A stretch of 64,000 bases of DNA from Dipteris shenzhenensis. Lineage: Eukaryota. The stretch is taken from NCBI GenBank assembly GCA_047967505.1, contig CM106538.1, one strand, 5' to 3'. The first letter of the stretch is position 1, and the number at the start of each line of letters is the position of its first letter. The notes beneath the pieces are model-generated. The model saw only the letters and a program-made list of their open reading frames with translations. It ran no database searches and was not told the DNA's origin. Shown in pieces: positions 1 through 57,141 of the stretch. Position numbers and translations under genes: made by a program.

Positions 1-136
1 CTAGCAGGTGTCGCGCCTAGCAGCTCACACTTTATCTGGCAGGATTGCATTGCTGGAGGATGCCTTGCAACAGTTGTTAGCGTAGCAATTACAGGCCAAT
101 GCAGAGCAGTCTGAACTTAGGAGAGCGATACACAGT

Positions 137-3100
137 ATGTCTGCCAGACCTTCTCGAGAGGAGAAGGGAAAGGCTCCAATGGAACCGGAGTCTAGTGTCC
201 ATACGGTCGAGCCTAGGAAGGCTAAAGTGCCAAATATTGCCAATTACAGGCCAGAAAAGTATTCTGGTCGGATGAACGACCGTAGTTCCGATGTCGTTGA
301 GACCTGGTTATACAAATGGGACGAAGCGTTCGCCGTTTGTGAAATTAGGAATGACATCAAGAAGATCCGCGAGGCCACCCACATGTTCAGTGAGGTAGTG
401 GATCGGTGGTGGATTAAGCAACAAAAAGATGGTATAGCATCCACTACCTGGGAGGGGTTTAAAGGAGAGTTCAGGAAACACTTCTTACCTCTTGACGAAG
501 CATCCCGAGCTTGGGATCAATATAGAAACCTTCGTCAAAGAAATTTATCGGTGGCAGAATACACTGATAAGTTTCGAGAGAGTGTAATGAAGGTTGACGA
601 ACCCCTGCCTCAATCAATCCAAGTGAAAGATTTCATATTTGGATTGAATGATCGAATAAAAATGGAAGTTCGGGCTAAGTACACGAACACATTAGATGAT
701 GCAATAGCTATAGCCCTGAACTATGAAGATGCCAAGGGCAGTAGGCCAAGTGGGTTTGCACAGGTCGGAACCCAGTATGGGTATCCGAAGAAATCTGGGT
801 TTAAAAAGAAATGGATTAGTAAAGGGAGTGGTTCTCAGCCGAGTGGTCAAGCCAAGCAGGCGAAACTGGCTGAAACTCCTAAACCAAGTACTACCATTGG
901 AGTGAAGAGGAAAGTAACCCCAATGGCAGCCCGGGCTTGGTCTAAGTCTCCCTTAAACCCAGAACAAAGGGAAAAAGCGAGGAGAGAAGGCTTATGTTTT
1001 GGTTGCCTTCAGCCTCATCAGTGGAAGGATTGTCCACGTAACAAAGATCGTCGGATGGCTGAGATGGTGATCTCAGAGTGCGACGTGGAGATGGAGGGAA
1101 GTCCCAGAGCAGAAGAGATGCAGATTCAGCTAGTGGGATCTTCTCAGAGGTTAGTACCTTGTTTGTTATGTGTGTTTGTTGCTAAGCTAGTGACGAGTGC
1201 ACCTGATAACATCCTATCTAAGCCCGCAGCAACGGGGTATACAGCCTTTAATGATACGGAGTTAATCAAAATGAAAGGGAGAGTGGCCAATCATGATGTC
1301 ATTGTGTTGTTTGACTCGGCGTCAACTCACAATGTGATCAACTCCAAGCTCGTGAAGAGGCTGAAATTAAAGACAAGTCCATCTGACTATGTGTATACAG
1401 TCAGGATGGCAGATGGAAGTTCAACTGAAGCATGGGACCAAAGGGTTACCCAGTTGGAGCTTCGGATTCAGGACTATGCTAATCAAAATGAAAGGGCGAG
1501 TGGCCAATCATGATGTCATTGTGTTGTTTGACTCGGCGTCAACTCACAATGTGATCAACTCCAAGCTCGTGAAAAGGCTGAAATTAAAGACAAGTCCATC
1601 TGACTATGCGTATACAGTCAGGATGGCAGATGGAAGTTCAACTGAAGCATGGGACCAAAGGGTTACCCAGTTGGAGCTTCGGATTCAGGACTATGCTGAG
1701 AAGCTTGATTTTGAAATTACCAAGCTTGCTCATACAGATATAGCCCTGGGTATGGCATGACATTCTAAGAAGAATCCAGCCATTGATTGGCAAAAGCACG
1801 TATATCAATTTAAGATGAATGATGTGCTTTATGTCTTGCGAGGTGAGAAAGATGTACCTCAGGGACCGTTGGTTTCCGTGATGGAAATCCGAAAAGCTCA
1901 AAAAGAGTTTTTATTCCTTTGCACAGCATTGGTAGAGCCGGTTGATGATTCTTCGGCTAGCACTGATGTTACACAAAGTGGTGAGATGGCCAAGCTGGCT
2001 AATCTTATAACAGAGGAGTTCTCTGAATGTTTTAGGGATGAACTACCTTATGGGTTACCTCCAGAGCGGAAAGTTCAGCATAAGATTGAACTGATCCTGG
2101 GGGCAGAACCTGTAAATAGACCTCCCTATAGAATGAGTTTTACTGAAGAGGCGGAGGTGCGTAGACAACTGGAAGAATACCTCAAGCTGGGGCAAATTCA
2201 ACCAAGTTTCTCACCTTTTGCTTTGCTAGTGATATTAAAGAAGAAAAAGGATGATACATTTCGTCTCTGTATAGATTACAGAGCATTGAATAATATCACT
2301 GCTAAGCACAGGTATCCGATGGCTCGGATCGATGATTTGCTAGATGCCTTCCATGGAGCCGTAATTTTCAGCAAGATAGATCTTAAGTGTGGCTACCATC
2401 AAATCCGGATTAGAGCCGAGGATGTGCATAAAATTGCTTTTAGAAGCAGGTTTGGTCATTATGAGTTTTTGGTAATGCCCTTCGGACTTACCAATGCTCC
2501 ATCGACATTCGTCATGCTTATGAACGATTTACTACGTCCGTATATCGGAAAGTTTATAGTACACTTTATTGACGATATTCTAGTGTTCAGTAAAAGTATT
2601 ACTGAACATTGTGAACACTTGAGAATAGTGTTCAGTACTTTGAGGAAAGCCAGTCTTTATGTAAATAAAAAGAAAACTGTACTATGTATGGTTAGGCTTG
2701 AATATTTAGGATTCATAATTACTTCACAGGGGGTAGAAATGGATCCGAAGAAAGTGGCTGCGATACTACCTTGGCCAATCCCTCAGAGTCTGACCGTGTT
2801 GCGATCATTCTTGGGATTTGTCCAATTTTATAGAAGGCATATCAAAGGATATTCCGAAATAGTATTGCCATTGACTGATCTGACCTCAGATAAAGTACCT
2901 TTTATATGGGGACATAATCAACAAGAAAGCTTTAACACCATAAAACAAGCTGTGGTCCCAGGACCGGTGTTAAAAATAGTTGATCCCCAGAAACCGTTGT
3001 TCCTGAAAACCGATGCAAGTGGCATTGCGGTAGGAGCAGTCCTCCTTCAAGAGGGAAGGCTAGTAGCCTTTGAAAGCAAGAAGCTTTCTCCCTCTCAGAG

Positions 3101-9000: not shown

Positions 9001-9009
9001 GTAAAAATG

Positions 9010-34400: not shown

Positions 34401-36045
34401 TATCGAGACTGGCATTGGAATCCTCTATCCGACTGGCAGAGAGTGGGTTTGATACAGCATGGTATGTATGCGTCTCTGCTTGGTTTGCGAGTCATGGCAT
34501 TTAGATGAACAGGCTCCCTTCTTTTCAGTATAGCATGGATGGACCCCTGAGCTGATTCCGCGAGATGAGATTAACCGCATCATACGGTTAGACCTCCTCC
34601 AGCTTCACACACTTCGGACTTGTGGGGGGGGGGGACCAGGAGTTCCCCACCAAGACCCAGCTCTACTATGACCATTTCTTGAGAGTATCGGAGGATGGCC
34701 TCATCATCAAACCCCAATATCTTGAGGATAGAGGAGTCTCACATGCACTGAGGATTGCCATTGGACAAATGCGAGTCTCCTCCCATCAATTGAGGATTGA
34801 GGCAGGGAGAGCTACATGCATACATAGAGAGCAACGGACTTGTATGCTATGCACGATGGGTCAAGTCAAGACCTAGGAGCACTTTCTTTGTATGTGTCCT
34901 GCCTACTACGAGATCCGAGGGCACTACCATTGCCTTTTTCAGGAGGGACACGGGTTTGGCCCACTCTCACGACTGATCCACTTCCAAGATCAGGTCTGAA
35001 TTGGGCTCTTCCTGATGGAGATGCGGAGACATAGAGAGACACTACTGCGACGGATCAGAGAGCAACAGGATGCGACCACCACACAGGACACTAAGGTGGA
35101 CCGAGCGCAGAGGCAGGTCACCGACTTCTATGCATTTGAGTCAGCTCCAGGGCACTCGGGAGTAGAGGAGGAGGAGCTAGCTGACATGAGAGATAGATGG
35201 GTCAATAGAGGGAGTCGGCACGACACCACTACTGGACGAGGGTCACAGGGATCTCACATGCGACAGGAGACCAGAGCACACACGATTTAGGTTCGACCTA
35301 TCTCAGCTCTTCTCAGAGGCAACCGACAGAGGCGCGGCATTACACTTGACATAGCCCATCGGATCCAAAGATCGAGGAGACCACGCCCCCCACTACAGCG
35401 CCAGACAGCTCGACAGATGTAGATACATGAGCTCTTTGTGTCAGACTAGAGAGCTATCACGGAGCCTGGATCACGGAGCCTGGATACATGGAGCCAGATC
35501 ATGTTCTATGAGGATTAGCCCTGAGCGCCTGACATGCCTCACTCATGTTACACACTATTTGGCTTTTCTGGCCTGATTTGATATGATGTACTACATTAGT
35601 ATTTCAGTTTATGTGTTTTCTAGTACTCAGCGAGGGCCTTAGCGAGCCCTTTGCTCCAGCCCACTGTGGCTTGTATTTCTTTCTTTCTTTCTTTCTCTCT
35701 CTCCCGTCATTGTTTAGACCTGGGATACGTCCCACGGGAGTCACGGTGGCTCTGGTCTTGCATCGAGCCTCGTCCAGGAGACCGAGACGCACGGCACCCC
35801 TTGACGGGCGCCAGCGTCCCATCACCAGCTATGCACTAGCCAGGGCGACATGACATACGGAGGATTCCGCTCCGCTCCAGTCCTTTTCTTTTCATTGTTA
35901 CATCCAGATGTATTTGATTATGTATGATTAGACTTAGGATTCAACACGGGTGATGATGCTCGTTTCAGTAGCTCCACCCTTACTGTGATTTGTATCAGGT
36001 TTTCTTTCAATCTCATAGACCCATCGGTCTTCCGAAGACTCTAAT

Positions 36046-36089
<44 letters not shown>

Positions 36090-39000
36090 CCCCCCCCTCT
36101 CCCTCCCTCCCTCCCTCTCTCCCTTCCCCTCCCCCTCCCCCCGCCGCCCAGCCCTACGGGTTGTATCTCCCCCCTGCCTACGGTCCATAGTTCCCAAGAG
36201 TTTCGGAAGCTAGGAAACAGAAACGGGCTGGAAATGATGTTTCAAAGTTTCGGTCACCAAAAGAAATGGTGGAAATGGAGTTTCGGTTTTTAAGATTAAT
36301 AAAATATATATTATATATGTAATTATTATTAATACATATGTCATACAACAAGGCCTGAGAGGACAACAAGGAGGAGAGGAGACGGAAAGGGCTGAGGAGA
36401 GGGCAACGACAGAGGAGAGCAAGGAGGAGAGGAGAAAGAAAGAAAGAAAGAAAGTTTATTAAAGTCTTCGGAAGACCGATGGGTCTATGAGACTGTGGAA
36501 AACCTGATACAATGAGTTGTGGTGGTGGAGCTACTAAACGAGCATCCACACTAATGCAGAATGCAAAAAAATGCAAAATGGCAGTACTAAGTCCTAAGTA
36601 CAACATCATCGGCATCATCGTCGGCATCATAATCATAATCATCATCATCATCATCGTCAGCAACAGGGCATCAGGATGGACGAGGCTGTGGAAGTGGAGG
36701 CATGAGGTTAGCAATAGAACGTTGTTGCCCCCTCAAGGGTGTAGTCCTGGTACGTCTCTTGGTCATAGCTCTGCGTCTAACCAAGGCCACTGTGACCCCC
36801 GTCGTTCGGGCTCCGACCCTAAACAAGGAGGGGATGTCCCCAAGTGTGATCTGTGAGTCAACCCTTTGTTTGAGCTATCGGGTCACAGGCTCCAAGTCAC
36901 GGTCATGTCGAAGTCTCGCCTCGAGGGGGTCTATGTGATCTGGCTGAAAGAACTCCGTGATAGAGCTCTGAGAGGTATCAGTCGAGGGAGAAGGCTGCTC
37001 CTATCTCCATGCTCGGAGTATCTTATTGCGGTGTCTGAGCATCTCATGAATGAAACCAACCAAGCATTGTAGGTCTGGGTAGGAGAAGACACGGGCCAAC
37101 ATCCCATAACTATCTCTGAAGAGGCAGTAGAAACGCCCTCGGATCTCATAGTAAACAGGACACCTAAAGATGAAGTGCTCCTCTGTCTCAATCTCCTGCA
37201 TGTTACACAGTGTGCATATGCGCCTCTTCCTGGTTAACCGCTCTGCTCGGCCGCTCTCGATACGAAGTCTGTGTGAAGAGACCCAGAACTACCCAAGGGA
37301 GATCCTCAGCGAGTGGGGTAGGTGAATTTGTGTGTATCCTGGTGGATCAATGAAACCCTCCACTGTGATATGTAGGAAGTGATCTCTGTAGAAGCTCAGC
37401 TTCACTGGAAGATCACTCAGGCCCAACCAAGTCTGGAATGTGTGTAGTTGTAGTAGATCCTCACGGATAACCTGGTTGACCGCGTGTGATAGAGGGGAGA
37501 GAAAGGAGCATCCATACTGTACTGGAAAGGAGGTAGTCTGTCCATGTGGAGCCCTAGTCATGCAAACCATCTCTCTGTGCGTGCATACCAACACCTCTGA
37601 TGTCCCCCTGCTGCAAGTGTCATAGAAGAGGATGGTGCTAGCCATGGTATCCTGCTATGCCCGGATGTGTAATCCCCATACTCCCTGACTTGGTACAGAT
37701 ATGTAATGACCTGAAATGCAGCATCTAGCTGTAATGGGGGTGACCCAAACTTCGCCCGAATGATCTAGTGAGGGACAGATGGCTTACCACGGATCATCCG
37801 TGATAACATGAGAACCTGTAGCCGCTCCACCCTGGCCCACTCTATATCCAACAAATCTGGCCCCCAGCATGGGCTACCATACATCCCTGTAGGGCGGACC
37901 AAGGAGTCAAAAAGCAACCCTTTGGTCCGTGGATCCTGAAAATGAGAGTGGAAGCACTGTCTCTCTAGTCTATCCAATGAAGCATATCCTTTGCTCAGGC
38001 GCGCCTGCATCGTAGGTCTCATGGTGAAGGTGGGTCCGGAAAAGATGACCCCCAGATAAGTGTATGATGAAACTACCTCAACAGGGGACTCATCAAATGT
38101 GAAATGCTCATCGTGCATGACGACTCGAGATGTACTGAAGATCATAACCTTGGTTTTACCCGAGTTGACCTTCAAATCATGAGACTCACAAAAGGACTGT
38201 AGTGCGTCAAGGTGTCTCTGGAGCCCCTTTGTTGAGGAAGACAAGAGAGCCACGTCATCTGCATAAAGTAATATCCGGATCAGCGTGCCCGCGAGAGAGC
38301 AGCCTACCCCACCTTGTGCCTGCATCATTGTCTCGAGCTCGTCGATGTAGAGGCCAAACAAGGTAGGTGATAATGGGCATCCTTGTTTGACCCCGATAGT
38401 GCTCATGATCTCGTTTGTCCCTGTCCAGACTCTACTTGAAACTTGCTCATAAAGTGCCATGACAACCCAAATGATCTGCTGGTCATAACCCAGATCCTGT
38501 AGGCGTCGTCTGGGACGGGCTCTCGGAACGGTGTCAAATGCCTTGCAGAAGTCCACTAAGCAACAGTAAACCCTATGCTTCCGTGCCCTGGCCTCCTTGA
38601 TGATACATTTGAGCGCGAGAATGTGGTCCATGGTCCCATGATCCCGCCTGAAATCGGCCTGTCCCACTGCTCTGAGTCCTCGACAGTTTGCAAATCTGCT
38701 GACCTCAGAATCAAGTACTGATGCATAAATCTTGGACATGACATGTGCAATCATGATGGTCCCGTAGTTCTCCGGGTTCAAGGGATCCCCTACCTTGTGG
38801 ATGGGTGAGATAGTGTTGGAGAGGAGAGCAAGGAGGAGAGGAGAAAGAAAGAAAAAGAAAGAAAGTCTATTAACGTCCATTGGAGAGCAAAAGGTCTGTG
38901 GGACAGCAAGAAACCCTCTAGTACATCTGCTTTACGGAGGGCACATGGCAGCTTCCAAGGAGTGCAAAAAGCAACCCCAATTATTTAGAGTACCCACATG

Positions 39001-42000
39001 ATATTCTGGAAGAGTAAACAACCATACATCATTTTAAGACTGAGAGGAGAGGGCAAGGGATGAGGAGAGCAAGGAGGATATGCTAGAGAGGAGAGCAAGG
39101 AGGAGGGGCAGTGGGTTGAGAGGGGGGTTGTAGGATGAGAGATGGATGCAGTAGAGCTGGAGATCATCGTGAGGCAGTTGGCAGATGTAGACGCACCAGT
39201 GACAGCATATGGGAGGCATCTACTTGAATAGAGGGCTATCCATGACTTGATCATATAGCGGTCTCTGGAGATGGCCATCATCTGGTGGGTTCACTTGTTC
39301 CCCACATGGCGGGGGGAGAAGTACTGTGGACTACCTGCTCGGCCTACTAGCCTTTGCCCCACGGATATGTGATTTTACTATGCCTCCTCCACTCGGGGCC
39401 GACCACTCATACCTTGCCTTCTGTATATCGGTTGCCATGCCAGCTATGAGGAGAGACCGCCCTCACCCACTCGCGTTCAGATCTATTTTGACTATGCTTT
39501 TGACCCGGTGTACGTGAGCCACCTAGCTTTTGAGCTTCCAATATTACTTGGAGAGGGAATGGACCTCGCACGTGCATCAGATACCCTTGTCTCAGTGATA
39601 CAAGATGTTGTCACCAGATCTTTTCCCATGACACGATTTTCACGTGTCCCAAATGGGAAGATGCCCCAAAACCCCTGGTTCGACGATGAGTGAAGAGAGA
39701 TGAGAACCCACCTTACACATGAGCTAGCACTAGGACACTTGACTTCACCAGAGGCGCAGTGGATCTTACACCAAGTGACACGGCGTAAGAAGTGGGATTT
39801 TTCCCATCCCGGAGTGGGATCTCCTTCCCAAAGAATCTGATCACCTCATTGCAGGACCCTTGGGCACTTTGCTAGAGACTGCCCAAGGAAGAGAAAAAGA
39901 CCCAAGAGGTCTTCTGGTGCGGCTCCTTCACATACTACCACGACTGCACCTCCCCAGCACCCTGTACCACGCACTCCAGGACCACCAAGAGCAACAGGGC
40001 ACCTTGCTTCGCGCACCCTAGGACCACCAGGGGCAGCAGGGCGCCCAATGCCCGCAGCACACCCAGTACCACGATGGAGGCTATCAGAGCGGATCCCTTA
40101 CCTCAAGAGGAGACTTTTGATCCTGTTCAGCAGACAGACGCCTTCCAGACTCCAGAGGTGGATGTTGCGGCAGCCCAGGACACTACAGTTCCACATCAGG
40201 AGGGGCCTTTAGATCCACCAGCCCCAGTCACTTTGGTCTCTGACCCCTTGGTTTCTGACCACGAGGGGACTACAAGTACTTCTTCCCCGCAGACTATTCC
40301 TGCCACAATCAGGACAACTGAGAAAGTGCAGGCGTAGATGAGGGCTCCTGATTCCTCTTCACCCCAGCCACAGGCCTCTCCTGCACTGGTCCTGTCTACC
40401 TGAAATCTCGACTCTTTGTCGAAAGAGAGAGCCGTCTGGACGCTGAAGCATAATGTGGTCATCTGAGATGTTAGGGTCAGAGACAATGACCCTAACACGA
40501 GGCACCCCGTCTGCACTAACTGCCTCTGCCAAGGAAGAAGGAATGCCAGGAAGGGAGGGGATCTCCGTGACCACTCCGAATGTGGCTCCGATAGTGGCAA
40601 GCAGTCAATGGTAGACCTGAGGAAGACCAGGAAACCTAATGAACAGTGATGTGACCTACCTGTCTTCCTTGACTGGATCGAAGCCCAAGGTGTAGGGCAA
40701 AAGAAAGATCCTCCTCGAACCCAAAGCCAGGGGATTAGCTTTGAGAACAAGGGCTGTGGACTTGTGGGAGTCGAAAACCACTTGGAAGAATCCACGTCCC
40801 AAAAGTCGAATATCCCTGAGGTGAGGGGCGAGGTCTCCTGGTAACGCCGCCAGCATCCAGTGTCTAGCCTGTGATCTGGAAGGGTGTGACCCAAAGATGC
40901 GGGCGAAAAGTGATGTGGAGCCCTCTAATTCCACATCTTTCTTGAGCTGCTGCAGCTTGTCTTCTGAAAAAATGATGGTTCTCGCGGCCGGTGGAGGTGG
41001 ACGGAGATTGGCTGAATGGGGATCCATTCGCCAATTGATGTGAAAAGGCCGATCCCAACACTGAAAAAGCTATGTCCGTGAAACAACTGCCCAGGACGCC
41101 CTGAACGTGGGCGCAAGAAGAAGGAGAAAGAGAGGGTAGGAGAGAGGGGAAGGGAAGGGAAAGAGAGGGGCAGGAAGAAGGAGAAAGAGAGGGGAGACGG
41201 AGGTAGGCTGAGGGGGAGGCGTGGGGAGCTGAGATAGGGAGGAAGGGGGCGGGGAGGGAGAGGGAGGAGGTTTTTTTTTTTAAAATAATAAACTCTTTTT
41301 TTTTTTTTTTGGGGGGGGGGGGGGGTCACCTTCGGGGGGAAGCAGCGGGGGGGGGGGGGGGGGGGGGAGAGCGTGGGGGAGGGAGGGGGGCGGGGGAGGA
41401 GAAGGGGGCGGGGGGGAGGGCGGGGGAGAGGGAGGGCGGGGGAGGAGAAGGGGGCGGGGGGGCTGGCGGGGGAGAGGGAGGGCGGAGGAGAAGGGGGCAG
41501 CGGGGAGGGGGGCAGCAGGGGAGGGGAGAGGGGAGAGGAGAAAGGGGCAGCGGGGAGGGGGGCAGCGGGGGGGGGGGGGGGCTGCTGGCGAGGGAGAGGG
41601 AAGACAGGGGAGGGGACGGGGGAGGAGAAGGGGGGCGGGAGGACTGACGGGTGGGGGAGAGGTTGGGCGGGGAGGGAGAGGTAGGGGGTAGCGGGGGGGG
41701 GGAGAGGGAGGGCGGAGAGGAGGAAGGGGTGAGGGAGGCTGAGGGAGGAGGGAGAGAGGGCTGGCGAGAGGGGCCGGAGAGGAGGAGCAGTGAGGGGGGG
41801 GCAGCGAGGGAGAGGGAGAGGGAGAGGAGGCTGGCTGAGAGGAGGGAGAGGGAGAGGGGGCTGGCTGAGAGAGGGAGAGGGGAGGGCAGTAGCTCACGGG
41901 GAGGAGCAGCAGCTCAGGGCTCTAGGATGTTGCTGTAATTTTCTGTCAATTGAAACTTTGACTTTGGAGTATTTACAACTTGGTGACAAATAATTCTAAT

Positions 42001-45000
42001 TTTGCCAAAGAATGCACGTGTGAATTCTTAGCAAAATTTTTGTCCACCATGATCCATCCCCCTTTGGAAGGCTCCACGCAGGGGGTTTGGGACTCTATTC
42101 CTATTGTTTGGTTGGTCGGAGGCAATCAATTAAGCATGCAATATCAAGCAAGCAGGACCAACAAACTAGTGAGCGAAGCAGAAATGGTTGGGCTACCAAC
42201 ACATAATCTGAGTATATATATGTACTCATCATTCATAAAGATTTATAGTGATTCCTCAACATTGAACATGATTATAACATAATATTGGAAGTGTGCATTG
42301 GTGATACTGTTCTATATTCTCATGAGATGAAGTGGCTATCAACGGCTACTATATAGTTGAAGTGCATCATTTGATAAAAACATAACTTCACTATATGTAT
42401 GTACTCATCATTAATAAAGATTTATAATATCACCTCAATTTTGAAGATGATTATATATAAGCTTACAAGTCTACATTGGCGATAGTGTTATTTATTCCTA
42501 TGAGATGAACTTGCATAGAAATGGTTTGGCTACCACCAACTAGTATATAGTTGAAGTGCATCATTCAATAAAAACTTCAACATTGAACATGATCATAACA
42601 TAATATTTTTATTTTGCTTCCTATTACGGGCAGGCTTGCTCTAAATCTGGTGCAATAAACTAGCAAAATTCCATTAAATTTATATTTTTATGCATGAAAT
42701 TTTTCGAAATGGTGCAAAAGGTCATGATAATCATCTAAATCATGCCTTGCCATTTGATTTGATATGTAACATGACCCCATTTGGATTTGTAAATCATCAG
42801 ATACAGGATGTCGAAATTCTCATGTTTTGGGCCAAAACAGGAAGCCTGTCAAAACATGAGAATTTCGACGCACTCCGTGTTTGGCCCAAAACATGAGAAT
42901 TTCGATGTCTTGTATCTTTTGATTTACAAATCCAAATGGGGTCATGTTACATATCAAATTGAATGGCAAGGCATGATTTAGATGATTGTTAATGTATGTG
43001 GAAGCTATTCATGGTCGAATTGAATCCTCTAGTAGTTGGTGTGTGTGTGTGGGGTGCCTTGTCTGGTATTACTGGACAGACTAAAAAACAAATAAGTATG
43101 GCTAGCTTGAGGACGTAGTGACGGGATGAAACAATACGTGATGTCGGAGGCCAAGGCAAGGGATCCCCTTAGATAGTCAACTATAGCAGAGCCTCCTCCA
43201 TGTGGGAAATAGTGAGCCCATCTGACGAAGGCCACCCTGTCCGGACTATTATAGATGATTAGGGAGAGTAAGGCGTGATGGGCCTCCAAAGAAAGAAAGA
43301 AAGAAAGTCTATTAATGTCCACAGAAGACCAAGAAGTCTATGGGACAACATGAAAATCAATTAGTACATCAGCTTAGGGACGGTAGCTCCCAGGGAGTGC
43401 ATAAAGCAGCTCCATTTATTTAGAGTACCTACATTATGACTTGGAAAGAAACATAATCGGCCATACATCAATTTAAGACTGAGAGTCTTTTGGCTTGGAT
43501 TTAAACTCTTTAATGAGTGTTACGTCCTCACGGTCCACTGCCCATTTTCCATCATTCCTTGCAACCTTGACCTTAGCTAATTCCGTTGCCTTATTTTTCA
43601 ATTGATCTCGTGTAAGTTCTTCAGCTATCCATATCTTAGTTCCTTTCAACTTGTAGGATTGTTGGAGAAGCTTGACTCCTAGATCCTGTGAGAGCGTAAT
43701 GATAGCATGACCTTTAGACTATAAGATACGAGTTGCTCTGGGTTCATCGTCATCATCAAGAGCATCATCCTTATCAACTGTCCAATCAATATTAGGCATG
43801 GTTGCTTTGATATGTGCTAAGGTAACGCTGAAAGAGTCCTCTTTGCACCATCCTTCCGGGAGTCCCCCTATTCTAATCTTCAAAGCGTTATCACGCCTAG
43901 TTGCATGTTCTTTAATCTCTTCCTGAATGTCAACCTTGTTAACCTTTGGATCAAACTCCACCATCACTTCCTTCTTTGCGGTCTGTACTTCAGTGTGAAC
44001 TAGGTCTTTGACTGTGGAGACTAGCTGGGGGGTAGGGGGGGAAGCCTTGTAAGATTTTACAACCTCGTCGATGATTGCCTGCTTGCCAGGTCCTTCTAGA
44101 ACCTGAATTCTAGCTACGGCATTTGCCAATTGCATCTTTAACTCTCTTACCTACTCTTGTAGATAAAAAATCTGTTCATGGTGCCCAATGATGGGTCGGT
44201 CCAGACATCCTCGTAGGTATGTATGTGCATACGGAGAGGGTGTCATAGCTGCAACGGTGGCGTATCGGGACCTGTTGCCTGAAATGATTGGGGTTGAGGG
44301 GGGAGACTTCGAGGAGAGGCTCGGCCATTCCTTGCTGGCCATATCTTCTGCTGCCCCTTGGCTGAGCTAACCCCCTAGCTGGGCTGGGGGTTCAGCCCAA
44401 CTAGGGGTTAACCTTGGGTTGAGTTAACCTCTGTTGAGGTGTTGGTTAGGTCAGAGTTCACCTAGGTTAGGTTAACTGGTGCGGTGCTAGCGGCGCTGGT
44501 GGAGTTGACGATGGACGGTGACGAGGCTGAGGTGACCGGCGAAGAGGTTGAGGTAACGGGTGAGGCTGAGGCTGAGGTTGACGCTGACGGGTGAGAGAGA
44601 GAGAGAGAGAGAGAGAGGCTGAGTGGTGAGGAGGGGAGAGAGAGAGAGAGACAGGCTGAGTGGTGAGGAGGGGCTTGAGGCTGAGAGGCTGAGTGACGGA
44701 GGTGGAGAGGCTGAGCGACGGGAGAGGGAGGCTGAGCGACGGAGGGAGGGGCTAGCGATGGGAGAGGGAGGCTAGCGATGGAGAGGCTGAGCGGGGAGGC
44801 TAGCGACGGAGGTGGAGAGGCTGAGTGACGGGGAGGCTGAGTGATGGGGAGGCTAGCGACGGAGGTGGAGAGGTGGGGAGGCTAGCAACAGAGGTGGAGA
44901 GGCTGAGCGGGGAGGCTAGCGACGGGAGAGGGAGGCTAGCGACGGAGGTGGAGAGAGAGAGAGAGAGAGAGAGAGGGGGGTAGTCCCATTGAACCAAAGA

Positions 45001-46045
45001 GGGATCAGTCTCAACCCCACCCTAGTACCCATTATTTTTAAGAGTGGATTCAAGAGAACCGAAGACAAGAAAAAGAATGACAAGAAGAGAGGAGAGGAAA
45101 GGTGAATAGAGGAGGCAAGACTATTAGAGAGGGAGATCATAAAATATAAAAAGAGAGGGCCATGGAATTACCAAATCCTAGTCCTAGAGTATGCGTTGTG
45201 GGACAAATCCATTGGTCACATGAGCAATTAAGGATACAACTATACTAATTCCATTTGCACTAAGCCTAGTTGGCTGTGTAATGATTGGCATTATACAGAT
45301 TCCTAGTGGCTCTTTTACATATGTATGCCACATTTTTAAACCATATAATTACAGGGCCTTGCATTAAATTCATGTCTCTGAAATTTGTCCAGCGATCTCA
45401 GATGTCCTTAGTTACTCTTTAATGGAATTCCAGGTGGAACATGCTACCAAAACTGTGAGTCTAGTATTATAAAAACTGTACCATATACAAGCTTTGCTAG
45501 CATTGGAAACTGCTTTGAGATTTTGGCATTTGTTTCTTGATGATTCCCAGCACATTCCATGGAGGAAGCGGAGATACTTTGCGATCGTCTTGGAATATTT
45601 GTGAATGGTGAACTGCAATGTATTGGCAATTCAAAAGAGGTAGTACACCATTCTATAAAACTTTCTTTTAAAGTTAATGAATGTGTTGTTTTGTGTATTC
45701 TCATGTAATGCCCTTATTGTGGACTCTCATTTGGTCTTTGTGCAGCTAAAATCAAGATATGGTGGCTCATATGTATTTTCTATCACGACAGCACAAAATG
45801 AAGAGGAGAGAGTATCAAAATTGGTATTCGATTTATCTCCAAATGCAAAAAAGGTTTACAATATTTCCGGGACTCAGAAATTTGAATTGCCCAAGTCAGA
45901 TGTGAGAATAGCAGATGTCTTCCGCACTATGGAATATGCTAAAAAAGAACTGAGTATCCAGGCATGGGGTTTTGCAGACACAACATTAGAAGACGTTTTT
46001 ATTAAAGTTGCCCGTGAGGCAAATGCTGGTGAAACTCTGTCTTGA
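19351..46045 (+). CDS. ABCA: ABC transporter A-family half-size protein (ABCA3-8/ATH-like), last 10 exons; 5' exons not found in the window
   Basis: Exons 19351-19476, 19740-19823, 26841-27208, 27302-27502, 27699-27808, 27940-28024, 28236-28364, 28567-28672, 45551-45639 and 45746-46045 all have AG/GT borders and compatible phases (1598 nt, no internal stop). Motifs include Walker A GPNGAGKT, signature [10 protein letters not shown], Walker [13 protein letters not shown]-loop THSMEEAE and C-terminal [11 protein letters not shown]. Confidence 0.95.
19740..19823 (+). CDS. ABCA: ABCA exon ([23 protein letters not shown])
   Basis: Acceptor tgcag and donor gtaagt; phase matches both neighbouring exons. 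Confidence 0.9.
20500..26501 (+). mobile_element. L1-clade LINE, family B, 5'-truncated in ORF1, with poly(A) tail; lies in an ABCA intron in sense orientation
   Basis: ORF1 LRFPGLP and knuckle [17 protein letters not shown]2 [40 protein letters not shown]-run at 26487-26501. Confidence 0.9.
26841..27208 (+). CDS. ABCA: ABCA exon ([24 protein letters not shown])
   Basis: Acceptor ctgcag and donor gag|gtaatg. Confidence 0.92.
27302..27502 (+). CDS. ABCA: ABCA exon with Walker A
   Basis: [18 protein letters not shown] borders. Confidence 0.93.
27699..27808 (+). CDS. ABCA: ABCA exon ([18 protein letters not shown]-loop)
   Basis: Acceptor cacag and donor gtgagt. Confidence 0.92.
27940..28024 (+). 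CDS. ABCA: ABCA exon ([21 protein letters not shown])
   Basis: Acceptor tgcag and donor gtgag. Confidence 0.92.
28236..28364 (+). CDS. ABCA: ABCA exon with ABC signature
   Basis: [23 protein letters not shown] borders. Confidence 0.93.
28567..28672 (+). CDS. ABCA: ABCA exon with Walker B and D-loop
   Basis: [25 protein letters not shown]; donor gtaag. Confidence 0.93.
28880..30190 (+). mobile_element. Old RTE-X-like LINE 3' fragment
   Basis: Decayed post-RT similarity ([14 protein letters not shown]); ends gtctcatagg..ttaataaagcc(tttc)n at 30120-30190. Confidence 0.7.
30864..31514 (-). mobile_element. Short internally deleted RTE-X-like LINE (RT N-terminal piece fused to 3' UTR and tail)
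   Basis: 31200-31500 encodes [25 protein letters not shown] and joins directly to a 3' UTR similar to 36450-36770. (gaaa)n tail at 30864-30878. Confidence 0.85.
31515..32171 (+). mobile_element. ORF1-only retroelement, divergent 5'-truncated copy
   Basis: Reads [43 protein letters not shown] (stop at 31999-32001), then a short UTR and a tail stem-loop cut by an LTR at 32172. Confidence 0.8.
32172..34052 (+). mobile_element. Non-autonomous LTR retrotransposon (TRIM/LARD-like)
   Basis: LTR1 is 32172-32522 (TGTT..TTCA), the PBS TGGTATCAGAGC is at 32525-32536, the interior is about 1.2 kb and non-coding, and a G-run PPT precedes LTR2 (33724-~34050, 3' end lost at a LINE insertion). Confidence 0.9.
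34053..35703 (+). mobile_element. RTE-X-like LINE, subfamily B, 3' part
   Basis: [37 protein letters not shown]. Distinct 3' end ..ctccagcccactgtggcttgta(tttc)n. Confidence 0.85.
35704..36087 (+). mobile_element. RTE-X-like LINE 3' UTR fragment with (CT)n tail
   Basis: Closely matches 18820-19145. Confidence 0.85.
36185..36300. mobile_element. Possible hAT-like transposon end
   Basis: Begins CATAGTT.. and carries repeated GTTTCGG/GAAACGG motifs resembling Ac-type subterminal repeats. The partner end was not found. Confidence 0.3.
36435..38819 (-). mobile_element. 5'-truncated RTE-X-like LINE with a 24-bp target-site duplication
   Basis: ORF 37765-38880 contains the RT ([18 protein letters not shown]). 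A zinc finger lies near 37150-37215 and the tail at 36435-36455. The TSD agaggagagcaaggaggagaggag is at 36411-36434 and 38820-38843. Confidence 0.92.
38844..39044 (-). mobile_element. 3' UTR and tail of the ORF1-only element family
   Basis: Aligns by eye to 43288-43482, including ctcagtcttaa (QS*), tactctaaataa and gactttctttc. Confidence 0.8.
39200..39810 (+). mobile_element. RTE-X-like LINE endonuclease fragment
   Basis: [22 protein letters not shown] and PQNPWFDDE, homologous to about 11780-12360. Confidence 0.75.
39815..41060 (-). mobile_element. L1 family A copy 2 (ORF1 only), with internal inversion 39847-40379
   Basis: [30 protein letters not shown] on minus; the knuckle continuation [18 protein letters not shown] is on plus. 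Confidence 0.85.
41110..41920. repeat. G-rich low-complexity tract (with T and G homopolymers) at the 5' side of L1-A copy 2
   Basis: Long G runs; purine-dominated on +. Confidence 0.9.
42180..42607. repeat. Degenerate AT-rich tandem repeat, unit about 180 bp, about 2.3 copies
   Basis: tatgtactcatcatt.ataaagatttata recurs at about 42218 and 42398; tatatagttgaagtgcatcatt recurs at about 42350 and 42544. Confidence 0.75.
42729..42987. repeat. Foldback/MITE-like long inverted repeat (arms about 108 bp)
   Basis: 42729-42836 is the near-perfect reverse complement of 42880-42987. Confidence 0.9.
43030..43285 (-). mobile_element. RTE-X-like endonuclease fragment
   Basis: [25 protein letters not shown]. 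Confidence 0.7.
43288..44410 (-). mobile_element. ORF1-only non-autonomous retroelement, best-preserved copy
   Basis: A single frame 44342->43473 (290 codons, two internal TAG) encodes a LINE ORF1-like protein. It is followed by about 165 nt of UTR including the stem-loop, then the (tttc)n tail. No EN/RT. Confidence 0.8.
43473..44342 (-). pseudogene. LINE ORF1p-like protein (coiled-coil-like segment plus RRM/CTD-like motifs), 289 aa with 2 nonsense codons
   Basis: Manual translation through the stops at 44151-44153 and 43719-43721 gives ..[54 protein letters not shown]. Confidence 0.8.
44500..44975. repeat. Degenerate purine-rich minisatellite with (GA)n runs
   Basis: Recurring gaggct(g)agcgacgg(a)g units; (ga)n at about 44594-44615 and 44952-44974. 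Confidence 0.8.
45551..45639 (+). CDS. ABCA: ABCA exon with H-loop
   Basis: [20 protein letters not shown]; phase 1 matches the exon ending at 28672. Confidence 0.92.
45746..46045 (+). CDS. ABCA: ABCA terminal exon
   Basis: [36 protein letters not shown]..stop. Confidence 0.93.
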   Translation, partial: LKSRYGGSYVFSITTAQNEEERVSKLVFDLSPNAKKVYNISGTQKFELPKSDVRIADVFRTMEYAKKELSIQAWGFADTTLEDVFIKVAREANAGETLS

Positions 46046-46609: not shown

Positions 46610-49600
46610 CCCCTTTCGGAATCAAATGAATGAGGCCCTCTGTAACTGAGTTTGGCATCTCACCCGAGTCCCAGACACCCTGCAGGACTGAGGTAATGTG
46701 ATCCCCAATCTGATCCCAAAAAGTAATAAAAAATAAGGGGGTGAGCCCATCTGAACCAGGACACTTGCCCTTGTGAAGGGTAGAGAGAGCAGTCCTGAAC
46801 TCTACGTTGGTGAAGGGTGCATCGAGTGAAACAGTCATTTCTCGTGTCACCAACCCCGGTAAGTGCCACCAAATAACCACTCTAGCATCGTCTGTGGCGT
46901 GAGTGTCATGATCTGCTGTAAGAAGGGAGGCATAGAAATCGGTGGCAACCTACAAGACATCATCTATATGTGTCTGAAGAACTCCGCCTGAGTCAACAAG
47001 CTATGAGATGCTTCAGGATTTGCTGTAAGAAGGGAGGCATAGAAATCGGTGGCAACCTGCAAGATAGCATCTATGTGTCTGAAGAACTCCGCCTGAGTTA
47101 ACAAGCTATGAGACGCTCTCCCTACTATGTCTAGGGCCAAGAGTAGAGAAGAAATGCTTGTTGACCCTTCCTCCCGTATGAGTCCAAAATGACTCTCTGG
47201 CATGAAAGGCATACTCTGCTCTCTGATCTAAGAGTAATTGTTGATGAGCCTTTGCTGCAGCAAGGCGCTCCTGAATCCAAGCATTTGTAGGCCTCTTCTA
47301 CTCCTCCCTCTGAAGGACAGCCAACTGCTGGTGGATACCTATCTCACGCCTGAGGATCTCACCCCTCTTGATATGAGCAATTGAAAAATAAAAGTCACTA
47401 ATATTAGAGAGGGCTGTAGTCCATTTTGCAAATGAGATACCCAAGTCCTCAACACTATCTCTGTAAGGTTCTTCTTTGCATAAAAAGAATTTGGAATCCT
47501 AACACTAGTAGAGTGGCGCCTCACATGGGGATCTGAGACCATCAAAACCATTGGAACATGATCTGAGTGGACACCCCAGCTGCAATGCAAACAGTACCAC
47601 CTCTGTCAAGAGCCTAATCATCCACATAAAACCTATCAATCCGTGCGTGTATAGGCATCTGCAATCTCCCGTTCGACCAAGAAAACATGAGAGAATGTGG
47701 TTGAGTGTGAAAAGAATCATCGTGCCAAGCATCCGTGCCATTATACTAAAAAAGGAAGGCATCCCACGTTGCTCTCTGTAGGGAGTGAATGCCACCTTCT
47801 CTCTCACCCCTTTTGTTTGAGGTCATTTCAACCATGTTGAAATCACCCCCTATAATCCAAGCATCTGCAATATGTGACCAAGAGAGCAGTTCCTTTCACA
47901 AAAGAACACGAACACGATCCCCTCTAAAATTGGATGCATACAGGTTTGAAAGACCAACCTTATGCCCACCATTCAAAAGAAAAATCCACTGAGCTTTGGA
48001 AGGGACTATGATCCCATGTCCACCAATCACCAAAGAGAGTATAGAAGAAGAAACATAAATGCAAGTACCTCCCCTAGTGCCCAAGGCGGGTGACCAAAAA
48101 GTATGGCCTGAAAGAAGCTTACTTAACTTGGCACAATCTCTGACATCCAATTTGTGTTCTTGAATCATCAGAATGTCCATGGGGCCCCCAGTAACACCTG
48201 GATAAAGTTGGTTACAAATCAGCTTCTTGCGTCGACGGTGAGGTACACCCCTGAGGCCCTGAATGTTGTAATTGACAATCCTCATCTGCGCAAGAGGAGG
48301 AGGTCAGATGGAATATCCTACTCGACTTGGTTGTGGAGAAAGCCCTCTCCTGCGAAAAGTTCTTCCTATCAAGAGGAGGGAAGTCAAATGGGGAAAGCAC
48401 ACCCACACTTGTTAAGGGGGAAACTCTGTCCACGAATGTCTGAAAGATGTGCTCCCTTAGCGTAGAGGGTATAAACTACTCCTTTGCCTCAAACTCAGCC
48501 AAGTTTGCCAGAACTGAAAATGAATTCCTACGAGTACCTTTGGTGTAGGAGTGCGAAGGAGCCCTACGGAAGGAGGAGTGAAACCAATAATGCCCTTACC
48601 TTTGTCAGGTGTAAACAGATCTGTAAGAGAAGAAGGGGGTTGTCGCTGCATGACCTCTGCATGAATCTTCATGACCTCAGCCATGACTTTGGCATTGTTC
48701 TCAAGTAAGGCACGGGTCTCTCAAATAAGGCACGGGCCCCATCAGGGGTAGCATGAGGGACTAGCTCCCCAACTCTAAGAGGCACCCAATGATGGACGAC
48801 CAAAGGAGGACGTGCTGACTATCCTGTCGGTGCTGTAGAAGTGTTAGGAAGAGAGGCTGATGGTCCTGGCTATGAAGCCGAAGTTCTAGCAGCATGTGAG
48901 GTGATAGGAACTGATTGTGATAAAGGTCCAGGTCGGGTGAAGCTATGAGGCGCACCTAAGGATCTTTTTGGCCTTTTCTTTTTCCTTGGGCAATGTCTAG
49001 CAAAATGCCCAAGGGTCTTGCAAATCCTACACTAATTCTGTCTCCTTGTAATCTGGACTCTCTGTCAGAAGGAGCCATCTGGACGTTGAAGCATAATGTG
49101 GTCATCCGAGATGTTAGGGTCAGAGACAATGACCCTAACACGCGGTACCCCATCGGACTCGACTGCCTCTGCTGCTGAAGTAGGCATCTCAGGGAGAGGG
49201 GGGATCTCAGTAACCACTCCAAAGGCGGCTCCAATGGAATGTAGCAGTTGATGGCACACCTGAGGAAGGCCTGGAAATCTGATGAAGAGTGACGTCGTCT
49301 GGCTGTCCTCCTCGACAGACCCTAGTCTCCTCAAGCCTCTTCCACGAGCCTTCTCTCCCTCTTGTAGATATTCTCTTATGTAGACTCTTGAGTCCATCTC
49401 TCTCTAGTTCATTCTCTCTCTATGAGTAGTCTTGGAGCTTTCGCTCCCTTTTTTTAGAGAGTGTTTTGAGCTAAGTGTAAAGGTGTCCATGAAGGAGGTG
49501 CAATGTTTCCTTGGAACCTACCCATCCGACCCAATCAGCCCGCATCAAACCTCAAAGAAAAAGGGGTTAAAAAAATCCTTTTGAAGCCCAGTCCTAACGG

Positions 49601-49915
49601 GCTAGCCTGCAGCACTGTACGTGCTACGTCCGAGGAGTCAAAAACAATCTGGAAGAAACCTCGCCCAAGTAGACGAACATTTGTGAACTGCCTTGCGAGG
49701 TCTCAAGAAGAGTGGCGAGCATCCAGTCCTTGGCATGGATGCGAGCAAAGAGCGATGTCAAGCTCTCCTATTCAGTATCTTTTTTGAACTGCTGCAACTC
49801 ATCTTTTGAGAAAGTGATGGTTTTCACGACTAGTGGAAGAGGGCGAGGATTGGCTAAAGGTTGGGCCGTCATCAATCAAGGTGTGAAGGCCGACTAGAAC
49901 ACAAAAAGCTCTATT
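46610..49915 (-). mobile_element. L1 family A copy 3 (ORF1, EN and start of RT), degenerate
   Basis: ORF2 start MRIVNYNIQGLRG at 48285, [25 protein letters not shown]; colinear with 5990-9000. Confidence 0.9.
49319..49547 (-). mobile_element. About 230-bp insertion in L1 ORF1, probably a truncated LTR
   Basis: Absent from copy 1 at the homologous site (about 8600); begins TGATGCGG on minus. Confidence 0.5.
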
Positions 49916-50410: not shown

Positions 50411-50555
50411 AGCTCATTTTGGTGCCTTTTAGCCAAGAAAGAAAATAGCCCTCAAGAAGGACCAACGTAACGTTGAAAATTTTAGAAAAAGGAAAAGAAA
50501 AGAAATGCGGTTAAGTTTGCATTCAATGAGGACACTTGTGCTACTTTATTATATC

Positions 50556-50836
50556 TGACGTAGGGTGCATAATTTGCTATTTCTAAGATCATCGACGCAT
50601 CTGGAGTGGGCGAAAACCCCCAAAAAGGCTTTTGAAATGCTAAAAAAGGGCCCCTGGAGGAGGCCCAGAAAAGGCCAAAAAGGCTCGGAAAGCAACTCGT
50701 ACAAATGAAAGCGATTTGACAGGTTGGACCTCCAGCTGCCTGTTTTCGACATTTCAAAAGCCTTTTTTGGGGATTTTGGCCCGCGGTCTGGATGCGCCGG
50801 TGATGTCAGAAATAGCAAATTATGCACTGTACATCA
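50556..50836. repeat. Degenerate inverted repeat (arms about 85 bp), MITE/foldback-like
   Basis: gtgcataatttgctatttct..aaaaaggcttttgaaatg (50556-50639) versus catttcaaaagcctttt..agaaatagcaaattatgcac (50750-50836). Confidence 0.75.
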
Positions 50837-51054
50837 GTGGGGTTATGTCATATTTTATTATTTTAGAGGAAAGAAAATTGAAGAAATCATGAATTTCTCT
50901 CAGGGCCCCAAAATGAGCTCCCTTTTTTCCTAATGAGCACAGAGGGGAGAGGGAGGGAGGGCCATATAGTCGTACAGCTGAGGAGAGGGGGAGCAATAGC
51001 AAGTTCGGGGAGGAGCAACAGCTCTTTTTTGAGCCTAGCGATTTTGAAACTAAG

Positions 51055-51720: not shown

Positions 51721-52242
51721 AAGTTTTATATATGTTTACTGTGTTTCACCACGAGAACTCAGTCATGAAGCTTATATTCGCCATTATACTCTTGCTTTTC
51801 TATGCGGATGATATGATGCTTGTGCTCTTGAAGAATATCTTCTCAAGTTCCACTTGCTTGAGTCGATTTGTCAAATCTTGTAAGGCATTAGACATTGTCC
51901 ATGTGGTAAGACCTTGCCTAGAAGGAAAGCTTTGCTTCATTGACACAAAGTATAATGCAATGGACAAGTAAGTTTATGAGTTTGATACAGTGGTGGCTTG
52001 GAAACGACGCCAGAAAAAGATTGCCATCAGGGGGGACAAATTCCCCACATCTTCAACTTAATTGTTTGTGTGTGTGGTCAATAAGGGTTCTCTGCCTTGG
52101 GATGTCCCCCTTAAATGATTGTTACATGTTTGAGCTTTTACCGTGTTAGACCCATGGGAATTCCCCATGCATACTCATTGTCTAGTCTGCCAATTGTAAA
52201 CCAAGAGACCAAAGTCAAAGTGAGATCATGTTGGGGTGAAGA

Positions 52243-55200: not shown

Positions 55201-57141
55201 GTAAGAGTTTGGATGGTGGTATTCCTAAAGAGGCATGGAGTGGCAAGAAGCCCTCTTACTCTCATTTGTGTATATTTGGGTGTCAGACATATGCACATGT
55301 GCCAAAAGATCTTCGAAAGAAGCTAGATCCTAAGTCTTGGAAATGCATCTTTCTGGGTAATGGTGAAAGTGGAGAGATGGGCTATCGTCTATGGGATGCA
55401 GAAGCAAGAAGATCATATGCAGCCATGATGTAGTTTTCAATGAGAAGAAGATGCATAAGGCACCCATGAGGGATGTGGAAATGAGAAGAATCACTTTCTA
55501 GGATGTGAATCCACCTACATATGTTGATAGACAGCAAGCTGTCCATGCACCAAATGTGCAAGAAATAGTACCACCGAATACTCCCACAGGTACACAATCA
55601 AGGGTAGATGATGGATCATTTATTGGTAGAAATGATGAGCCAAATGTGGCTGATATGCAGGTGGGACAGCAAGCTGAAATGCAAATCTGGCCCAAAAGAA
55701 AATGCCAACTGTAATGGCAATCCAAAATGCCAATAAGTACCAAAGGCTCAAGCATAAACACCGTCCATGGGCATATGCATCAATAATATCTCATCCAAGA
55801 GAGCATAACACTATCAGTGCATCACCTGCAATGTGTTAAGGCTTTCCCTTAGCATAATATAGCATCCATGTGTAAAGCGTCCATAAAAATAGCATCCCAC
55901 AAGGCAATCTGGGCCTATCAGCACATCCAATAAGGATCGCAATGCATCTAAATGACCTATAAATCATCCACTGCAACCCAATGCACACCACGAATGAGCG
56001 CACATGGCTCAAATTGCAACTAGAGTGATCTGCATAAGGTATTCTCAAGAAATCATGGTCCCATGGAAAAGACCGCCACTAAAAATGGAACCTGAGATGC
56101 CTTAAAACATGGGTGCCATTGCATAATCGGACTCAACAAGAAAATTTGCAAATATCTCTCTTTTGTCGAAACTCCAAAATCCCAACCGATGAGTGAGAAA
56201 TGGGAGTCAACACTTATCCACTATCATGTGGCATAAATCTAAGGTTTCAAAACCTTAGAATGAAAAATGCATAACAAAGAGACAAAATCGAATACACGGA
56301 GATCTATAACTCTGAAAATACTCCATCGAATCACGCAAGAACTAATAGGTAGGGGTTTTTGGGCGTCCGAAATGCAATGGGATAGACGGTCTTGGAAACC
56401 GTGGTCTTAGTCACTGGGTCCAACACACGGACTGAAAAACGTTTTTGGAAACAAAACTATTTGTAAACTTCACCAGAGTGCGAATGATGAGCAACATAGA
56501 AGTTTTAGGACCTCCTGAGTCCACCGGAACTGACAGATCTACAAATGGTTGCTCCAAACTTGAGTTCCAACACCCGGGCAGAAAAACGTAGGAACTGACA
56601 TAGTGAGTTAGAAATCCAATGAAATGATCCTAGATTCAAGAATGAAGGTGTTTCCAAGCACCTGAAGTGAAGTGGACACCAAAAGCAAGCAATAGTTGCC
56701 TCTACAAGTCAATATAGAGTCTCTGTCATCGAACGGAACATGAAAAAGCTCAAAAAATGACTTTTTCTTTGAAAACACTTAACAAGCTCTCAAAACCACT
56801 TCGCAAAGCCAAAGTGACTTTTCCAAAGGTTCCTCCAAGGTCTCTACACACTCGAATGTAAGTAAAATCACCCACTAAGCTTCCCACAGAGCTTCTTCTT
56901 CCTTCCACATAGCTGTTGAGCTTCCAGGCATTCATGCATGCTCAGCTAGATTACCCGGGCTCTGATACTAGTTGAGAGTGCTCTCAACAGAAGCAAGAAC
57001 GGAAGAGGGAGAGAGAGCAACAGAGAGCCACACAAGTTTTGCTGGGTGCAGAACACCCTAATCTTCTTTTTCATTCATTTATATATGCATTTGAGTATTA
57101 TACATAATCGGGCTAAAGGCACAATGACCTTTAACCCCCAT
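52243..57141 (-). mobile_element. Ty1/Copia element (family 1), with a 2.6-kb internal inversion
   Basis: On minus: LTR remnant ~57141-56973, PBS-like tagtatcagagc (56970-56959), leader, then an inverted block 53078-55683 carrying gag-PR-INT on + (CYHCGKTSHMKKDC, LDSGAS, WHCRLGH, VHSDVCGP, TDNGGEY), then RT (YKARLVAKGF, QMDVKTAFLHG, YVDDM) at 53077-52243. Confidence 0.88.

Follow-up and report, generated by a model that had tools for sequence, protein, structure and literature searches.

Protein-coding non-autonomous long interspersed nuclear elements (LINEs) are rare. Passages of a 2018 paper name three that retain their first open reading frame (ORF1), namely HeT-A, HAL1 and Ag-Sponge, of the Jockey, L1 and CR1 clades, respectively; all three are animal elements, and their proteins probably work with those of an autonomous partner (PMC5786205). 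Part of a further article describes HAL1 as an element that ‘encodes only ORF1p’ and has several origins (PMC5753468). Here we analyse a 64,000-nt stretch of contig CM106538.1 from Dipteris shenzhenensis (assembly GCA_047967505.1), called the window below, whose numbering is used throughout, and describe an element at 43288-44410. Going by the homology of its ORF1 protein (ORF1p), the absence of any endonuclease (EN) or reverse transcriptase (RT) and a 3′ end shared with LINEs, the sequence of this element is that of an ORF1-present non-autonomous LINE. We consider it likely that it belongs to an ORF1-only family of ~1.1 kb that is mobilised in trans via the shared 3′ end. Literature searches, with Repbase and Dfam outside their scope, found no ORF1-only LINE in plants.

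The element shares with HAL1, the half-L1 of mammals, the plan of a non-autonomous LINE derivative with ORF1p alone, and its protein, like that of HAL1, is predicted to combine a coiled coil, an RRM domain and a C-terminal domain (CTD). HAL1 uses the poly(A) 3′ end of L1 and has arisen repeatedly from contemporary L1s, whereas a very long branch lies between the ORF1 described here and the one LINE ORF1 that was available, that of a LINE at 10390-14840 of the window. An assignment to HAL1 proper was ruled out by the 3′ hairpin and (TTTC)n tail of the element and by the RT of this associated LINE, which among PDB entries matches R2 (3.6e-29) more strongly than human L1 ORF2p (3.2e-16). HeT-A and Ag-Sponge are ORF1-present non-autonomous LINEs as well; they are animal elements of other clades, HeT-A being telomere-specific with a Gag-like (zinc-knuckle) protein, whereas the Dipteris protein appears to be of the RRM-CTD type and is encoded in a gene-rich region that is also rich in transposable elements (TEs). 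A parallel at the 3′ end is provided by the eel pair UnaSINE1/UnaL2, a stringent pair of a short interspersed nuclear element (SINE) and a LINE, for which passages of one article describe a borrowed LINE 3′ stem-loop with short repeats and a supposed recognition by the LINE RT (PMC3747384). Unlike our element, which keeps a full-length ORF1 frame, SINEs are non-coding and transcribed by RNA polymerase III.

The ORF1 frame lies on the minus strand, from an ATG at 44342 to a TAA at 43475-43473 (289 codons plus the stop, 290 in all). It is interrupted by in-frame TAG triplets at codons 64 and 208, has no frameshift and contains no introns; by estimate, some 13-14 stops would be expected by chance over 290 codons, against the two observed. 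The copy is nonetheless dead and decayed, with its two in-frame stops, and the frame (43473-44342) is best regarded as an ORF1 pseudogene. A profile of 16 database relatives, from which the query had been left out, matches it at E 1.3e-59. Directly after the stop follows a 3′ untranslated region (UTR) of 166 nt (43472->43307), the first ~60 nt of which are family-specific and the last ~110 nt alignable with LINE 3′ UTRs. Its end is formed by a 32-nt stem-loop (43347->43316) with an outer and an inner helix of 5 bp each and a minimum free energy of -12.8 kcal/mol, followed by TTAATAGAC and by the (TTTC)n tail, TTTCTTTCTTTCTTTCTTT (43306->43288). With the LINE ORF2 as tblastn query no match was obtained inside 43288-44410, and no EN or RT stands between the ORF1 stop and the tail. 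Upstream of the ATG, a putative 5′ UTR (44343-44410, minus strand) has an uncertain 5′ end, placed somewhere in 44374-44440 by the contig depth of a public run described below. A search of 43200-44500 against Rfam gave no match at E<=1. A preliminary description, made from the letters of the window, had already reported the frame of 290 codons with two TAG interruptions and no frameshift, and the passage from its stop through about 165 nt of UTR and a stem-loop into (TTTC)n without ORF2; both observations hold.

The 3′ end connects the element with the LINEs around it. A motif of ~41 nt accompanied by (TTTC)n or (TC)n is present at six LINE-type 3′ ends of the window (17389-17430, 19101-19141, 30120-30161, 30878-30918, 36009-36049 and 36454-36494), in the element, in two further copies of its family (G and I, the latter with its tail lost) and in one further tail, K. 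At one of the LINE 3′ ends (36009-36093, plus strand) the hairpin is followed by (TC)n instead of (TTTC)n. On 8 distinct copies, 91.1% of 79 cells in the proposed hairpin are paired and 3 of the 10 pairs have changed on both sides, compared with 26-47% pairing for slid partners and with 3 of 500 shuffles reaching the observed pairing and covariation, a contrast that is inflated, as the 9 sequences behind the pair counts had also served to derive the hairpin. In the outer helix, the element has UGUCC/GGACA where the LINE ends have AGUCU/AGACU. The corresponding covariance model scores the hairpin of the element at 57.3 bits and finds tail K, which was absent from the training set, at 34 bits (E 4.9e-6). 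Stem-loops with short repeats constitute the stringent type of LINE/SINE 3′ end according to part of a published account (PMC3747384), and the stem-loop, compensatory changes and short repeats of our element fit that type, as far as can be judged from comparing sequences.

Tail K (10129-10185, plus strand; motif 10129-10170) consists of the hairpin and (TTTC)n, is of the GTCC/GGAC stem type and stands just upstream of the LINE at 10390. It carries GGCC/GGCC in a helix where the others have GACC/GGUC. We considered tail K as a fourth copy of the family but do not count it as one, as only its last ~70 nt align with the family UTR. The GTCC/GGAC stem variant of the element is found at none of the six LINE-type ends of the window and recurs only in copy G and tail K.

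The junction of ORF1 stop, UTR and hairpin is common to three copies in the window, which represent two sister subfamilies, so that the recurrence asserted in the preliminary description is borne out. Copy G (38844-39046, minus strand) is 5′-truncated and belongs to the same family; it comprises the last 12 nt of the ORF, the UTR, the hairpin and the tail, and is 76.4% identical to the element across 208 nt that begin 12 nt ahead of the stop and end with the tail. Copy I (31514-32181, plus strand), of a sister subfamily, keeps the final two thirds of the ORF. This stretch begins near codon 124, ends in a TAA at 31999-32001, is broken by at least 3 stops and by 1 frameshift, and is matched by the family profile in two parts (E 5e-27 and 1.5e-15). 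The hairpin of copy I (32140-32181; 34.3 bits by covariance model) lies ~140 nt beyond the TAA, and the copy has no repeat tail, since a different repeat sets in at 32172. At the nucleotide level the three copies show 69-76% identity, and they differ in their flanks and truncation points. In the tree, the element groups with the database relative P0002 (97/93) and both fragments of copy I with P0005 and P0009 (96/55), all of these within one clade of 6 rows (95/88). The repeat that replaces the tail of copy I is one of a pair of direct repeats of 325 bp (32172-32495 and 33724-34048), 96.6% identical and 1.2 kb apart, which ends where a 5′-truncated LINE (34052-36085) starts; the pair may be a small long terminal repeat (LTR)-type insertion.

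Measuring dN/dS among copies had been proposed in the preliminary description. For the element and copy I the ratio is 0.18 over the last 59 codons, which cover the CTD (nonsynonymous differences per site, pN, 0.233; synonymous, pS, 0.656), and the middle 64 codons give pN 0.449 with a saturated pS of 0.864. From these values the coding sequence of the family appears to have diverged under purifying selection, and the low ratio implies that most of the divergence between the two copies arose in coding-competent lineages. Since the same junction is present in sister subfamilies near synonymous saturation, it either existed before they split or originated twice at one and the same position. A shared architecture after mostly coding divergence is what a replicating ORF1-only lineage predicts and what a one-off deletion does not.

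Outside the window, we used a run of 109,610 public contigs of uncertain kind (X1), which contains 0.10 of the sampled words; it was the one sequencing run listed for them, and none of RNA was among the results. Altogether 71 of its contigs match the region of the element at 80% identity or more: 2 at >=99%, 9 at 95-99%, 17 at 90-95% and 43 below 90%. The matches all fall within 43235-44440, save for those to an unrelated repeat at 42900-43033, and depth extends to the bin 44374-44440, with no cover across 43034-43234 or 44441-44900, the latter including a repeat at 44551-44663 that was left out of the matching. From these coverage limits, the element runs from a 5′ end near 44400 to a 3′ end at 43288. 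Among the matches listed, four contigs cross the ORF1 stop (43288-43478, 43385-43493, 43449-43650 and 43449-43585).

An exhaustive HMMER search of 1.84 billion representatives returned 53 protein relatives at E<=1e-3, all of 377 aa or less and none fused; 14 of them are intact, at 216-269 aa. We looked up 30 of the 53. For 24 of these the longest contigs measure 510-2160 bp, and the remaining six, the named relatives, are fern proteins, five from genome models (four ‘hypothetical proteins’ of Adiantum capillus-veneris and one of Ceratopteris richardii) and one from a Psilotum nudum transcript. The genome models include KAI5066643.1, KAI5065692.1, KAI5064441.1 and KAH7444147.1, and names of this sort by themselves point to a fern as the probable host. 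By comparison, relatives of the LINE ORF2 from the same sources, in a search restricted to long proteins, measure 763-1271 aa on contigs of 3.3-5.7 kb, with Adiantum nelumboides and Taxus chinensis as the named sources. The short contigs of the ORF1p relatives, set against the long ones of the ORF2 relatives, suggest an ORF1-only form. In metagenome contigs, a narrower alignment gave 302 pattern matches, none of which was confirmed by tblastn. Searches of the ESM Atlas led from an ORF1p relative to clusters without names and from an ORF2 relative to generic EN-RT clusters, with no indication of the LINE clade.

At the sequence level, Pfam searches with the protein of the element and with all 17 members of its alignment (A1) recovered coiled-coil families only. 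The same was true of a profile search of PDB sequences with the protein family, in which the coiled coil of L1 ORF1p (6fia_A) appeared at E 0.11. A model of the protein was built with AlphaFold2 from the 17-sequence alignment (mean predicted local distance difference test, pLDDT, 76.2; predicted template modelling score, pTM, 0.51). Foldseek gives chains of the human L1 ORF1p trimer (2yko/2ykp/2ykq) at each of ranks 1-9, with a top match at E 3.7e-5 and probability 1.00 over 188 columns, and rank 10 is a nuclear magnetic resonance structure of an RRM-CTD. VIA-align, which is independent of Foldseek and was run on 48,161 chains, also places 2yko_A first (Z 9.7, root-mean-square deviation, rmsd, 7.5, 162 aligned, model residues 109..282), ahead of a runner-up at Z 7.0; the central domain of human L1 ORF1p (2w7a_B) scores Z 6.6 with rmsd 3.1 over 79 aligned residues (model 150..242). 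Because both fold searches are led by human L1 ORF1p, the modelled protein is assigned as an ORF1p of Type II-like build, in which a coiled coil is followed by RRM and CTD. A structural comparison with L1/CR1-type RRM-CTD proteins had been suggested in the preliminary description.

On the minus strand, the predicted coiled coil occupies 43956-44195 (residues ~50-129; model helices 50-62, 66-83, 85-97 and 105-129), the RRM-like domain 43617-43895 (residues ~150-242; structural match to 2w7a_B, with Foldseek RRM matches below the L1 ORF1p rows) and the putative CTD 43497-43616 (residues ~243-282). The last of these is covered by 2yko_A and is the best conserved part of alignment A1 (…GKWAV). The likeness to human L1 ORF1p extends to domain order and fold class and, in the model of an intact relative, P0003, to a parallel in-register coiled coil; the difference is that identity amounts to 9-15% and that the protein of the element has no Transposase_22 match. 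The homotrimer model of P0003 scores 0.46, compared with 0.00 for the best control, on a scale whose mark is reached by 21 of 30 proteins solved as one-chain pairs and by 0 of 23 solved single chains. Contact agreement between its runs is at least 51%, partner pLDDT is at least 68 and the predicted interface follows an in-register heptad pattern over P0003 residues 30-112, a pass that may reflect memory or likeness only, as a solved L1 ORF1p trimer exists.

The preliminary description had paired the element with the LINE at 10390-14840, which it labelled RTE-X-like. This LINE has a full L1-type ORF1, an ORF2 of ~1200 aa, whose relatives include proteins of 1200-1270 aa, and a CCHC motif at the C-terminus; its match to zf-RVT in Pfam is weak (E 0.0053). 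Its ORF1 is decayed, with stops and at least 1 frameshift in a three-frame reading and 6 stops in the translated stretch, and an RRM-CTD remnant of it at 10830-11234 (plus strand) is remotely homologous to the protein of the element. Pairwise BLASTP gives E 0.002 over 40 residues; the family profile matches the remnant with 32.5 bits (E 2e-11), and hhalign, with 96.9% probability (E 1.6e-10), aligns 131 columns of RRM and CTD that are 22% identical. Homology at great divergence, as first described, is thus well founded. In a tree of 31 rows, a branch of 3.2 changes per column (support 100/100) divides the 28 family rows from the LINE ORF1 with its 2 database relatives. What stands of the proposed partnership is an element with ORF1p only and a LINE-type 3′ hairpin; this particular LINE is not demonstrably the partner, because its ORF1 lies across a very long branch, its own tail has a shortened 3′ motif without the hairpin, and the stem variant is unmatched. 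On the window, the family profile found no further ORF1 of this kind beyond the remote LINE one and the copies, nor did it find one in a second LINE at ~22114-23986.

Other traits of the LINEs may be noted here. The RT region of the LINE at 10390-14840 contains a 244-bp tandem duplication (12734-12977 and 12978-13221, 98% identical). A shortened LINE on the minus strand (31503-31201 and 31201-30864) joins a ~300-nt RT piece, 95% identical to the LINE at 10390, to a ~340-nt 3′ UTR with hairpin and tail, and has no ORF1. The second LINE (22114-23986, plus strand) is unrelated and has EN and RT.

Members of the family and LINEs are also found head to tail. The tail of the element is directly adjoined, in the same orientation, by a 5′-truncated LINE ORF2 fragment (43008-43287, minus strand), recognised by tblastn over 43265->43008 (residues 38-126, 43.8% identity, E 1.1e-12) and overlapped by a listed ORF at 43029-43322. 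The tail of copy G is adjoined by a 5′-truncated LINE at 38817->37136, and after the LINE tails at 14830 and 17448 the next 5′-truncated LINE begins directly (14837; 17446-17459). A fifth case of same-orientation abutment is the tail at 10185, which precedes the LINE at 10390; this LINE is near full length, whereas the other four are 5′-truncated. The arrays suggest integration into pre-existing (TTTC)n tails, or a template switch in which the RT passes from LINE RNA onto another RNA at its 3′ end; by either route, the ORF1-only RNA would be a substrate of the LINE machinery. As a separate observation, tails F and G share a ~25-nt CT-rich 3′ flank (36410-36435 and 38818-38843, minus strand), and the same motif also precedes copy G; this suggests a preferred CT-rich target or a shared repeat. 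A long palindrome (42729-42987, 86% identical to its own reverse complement) sits just past the LINE fragment that follows the element.

We infer trans-mobilisation, transcription of the element, cis-binding and the use of LINE ORF2p in trans, and the following course of events would account for the observations. Source copies of the ORF1-only element would be transcribed and translated, and the resulting ORF1p would multimerise via its coiled coil and coat its RNA. The EN-RT encoded by ORF2 of a co-resident autonomous LINE could then recognise the shared 3′ stem-loop and repeat tail (stringent recognition) and use target-primed reverse transcription to insert copies of the ORF1-only RNA at sites that are CT-rich or consist of (TTTC)n. 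The expected outcome would be 5′-truncated copies and head-to-tail arrays with LINEs.

Several points weigh against a trans-mobilised ORF1-only family. The 5′ end of the element is only bracketed (44374-44440) and no target-site duplication is defined, and no nucleotide similarity to the 5′ end of a LINE was found in a comparison with the only full-length LINE in the window, at 10390-14840, which need not be the parent. The window yielded no autonomous LINE that has either a close ORF1 or the GTCC/GGAC stem variant. At E<=1, neither the protein of the element nor a single one of the 17 sequences in its alignment matches Transposase_22 of Pfam. Structural evidence comes from three copies in the window and from one small run whose type is uncertain, and the four stop-crossing contigs of that run have 6-24 letters on their shorter side, where the bridging criterion is 31. 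Short contigs are not specific to the family, as both relatives of the LINE ORF1, 2 short fragments, are on contigs of 623 and 665 bp as well, and the database relatives are known from proteins alone. The inflated contrast of the hairpin counts, given above, belongs here too, as does the dead state of the present copy.

Among the competing explanations, the one that survives best, and which we regard as unlikely, is that an autonomous LINE with this ORF1 exists elsewhere and repeatedly yields ORF1-UTR-tail units as a by-product of deletion, splicing or template jumps. Spliced L1 insertions are known and provide a precedent for the RNA-splicing route. The window samples 64 kb only and does contain another internally shortened LINE, the RT fragment 31503->31201 joined to the 3′ UTR 31201->30864, and the alignability of the last ~110 nt of the UTR with LINE 3′ UTRs would be expected of such by-products. 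HAL1, too, arose several times from L1, according to part of the article cited above (PMC5753468). Against recurrent production, the same junction is found in two sister subfamilies at pS 0.66-0.86, the 53 relatives include no long or fused protein, the 24 on short contigs include none whose contig exceeds 2160 bp, and the family profile detects no ORF1 in the window other than the copies and the remote LINE one.

It is very improbable that the family is a domesticated, ORF1-derived host gene family, with the window copies as retrocopies or decayed paralogues. Mammals offer an example of such domestication in L1TD1, and both the intact ‘hypothetical protein’ models of 238-258 aa in Adiantum capillus-veneris, with one in Ceratopteris richardii, and the strong conservation of the CTD across ferns are what a host gene would lead one to expect. 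However, the copies end in a LINE hairpin and (TTTC)n rather than poly(A), one of them (copy G) is 5′-truncated, they stand in head-to-tail arrays with LINEs, the frame of the element is without introns, and run X1 contains many diverged contigs of what is a multi-copy family. A one-off rearrangement in which a LINE lost ORF2 locally, the other copies being segmental duplicates of that locus, is scarcely credible even in a window so heavily rearranged and rich in TE fragments, since the three copies are 69-76% identical with differing flanks and truncation points and since 43 of the 71 X1 contigs that resemble the element are less than 90% identical to it, which upholds the earlier view that no one-off deletion is involved.

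The reading of the element as a member of an ORF1-only family mobilised in trans has a further-reaching form, in which the ORF1-only unit is an ancient fern-wide lineage and not a short-lived deletion derivative like HAL1. We regard this as possible but doubtful. It is put forward because of a fern-wide clade, in which the protein of the element is accompanied by Psilotum, Adiantum and Ceratopteris sequences, the very long branch from the LINE ORF1, purifying selection, and a hairpin that co-varies with those of LINEs. If all relatives were ORF1-only, the family would have accompanied a LINE superfamily as its long-term protein-coding ‘satellite’ from before deep fern splits, and, if such an ancient lineage is real, it would be the first element of its kind described in plants.

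Should the ORF1-only reading itself be correct, the strategy of keeping ORF1 and borrowing ORF2 would have arisen independently in plants. As the element appears to belong to a LINE lineage with stringent 3′ recognition, it would join the route taken by SINEs, a copied hairpin, to that taken by HAL1, an ORF1p of its own, and the family would offer a natural test case for the role of ORF1p when ORF2p comes from another element. Plant L1 ORF1ps are Type I variants according to passages of Ivancevic et al. 2016 (PMC5203782), and to the extent of that account a plant LINE lineage whose ORF1p is Type II-like would itself be uncommon. Family members annotated as fern ‘hypothetical protein’ models also inflate gene counts.

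The remaining features of the window are mainly other TEs. A Ty3/gypsy element with gag, protease, RT, RNase H and integrase spans 86-4855 (plus strand), and Copia-type pieces in both orientations are spread over 52141-59651. An unclassified family of repeats, strongly GC-skewed and unmatched in Pfam, occurs at 5990-9006, 40379-41083 and 46611-49902, its copies being 71-82% identical, and a second long palindrome lies at 50555-50837 (70% identical to its own reverse complement). On the plus strand, an ABC_tran match at 27260-27571 (E 7.7e-6) and an ABCA12-like C-terminal domain at 45659-46042 (E 2.2e-27) were identified; should both pieces belong as exons to a single gene for an ABCA-type transporter, its intron of ~18 kb would contain the element together with most of the TE cluster, in antisense orientation.

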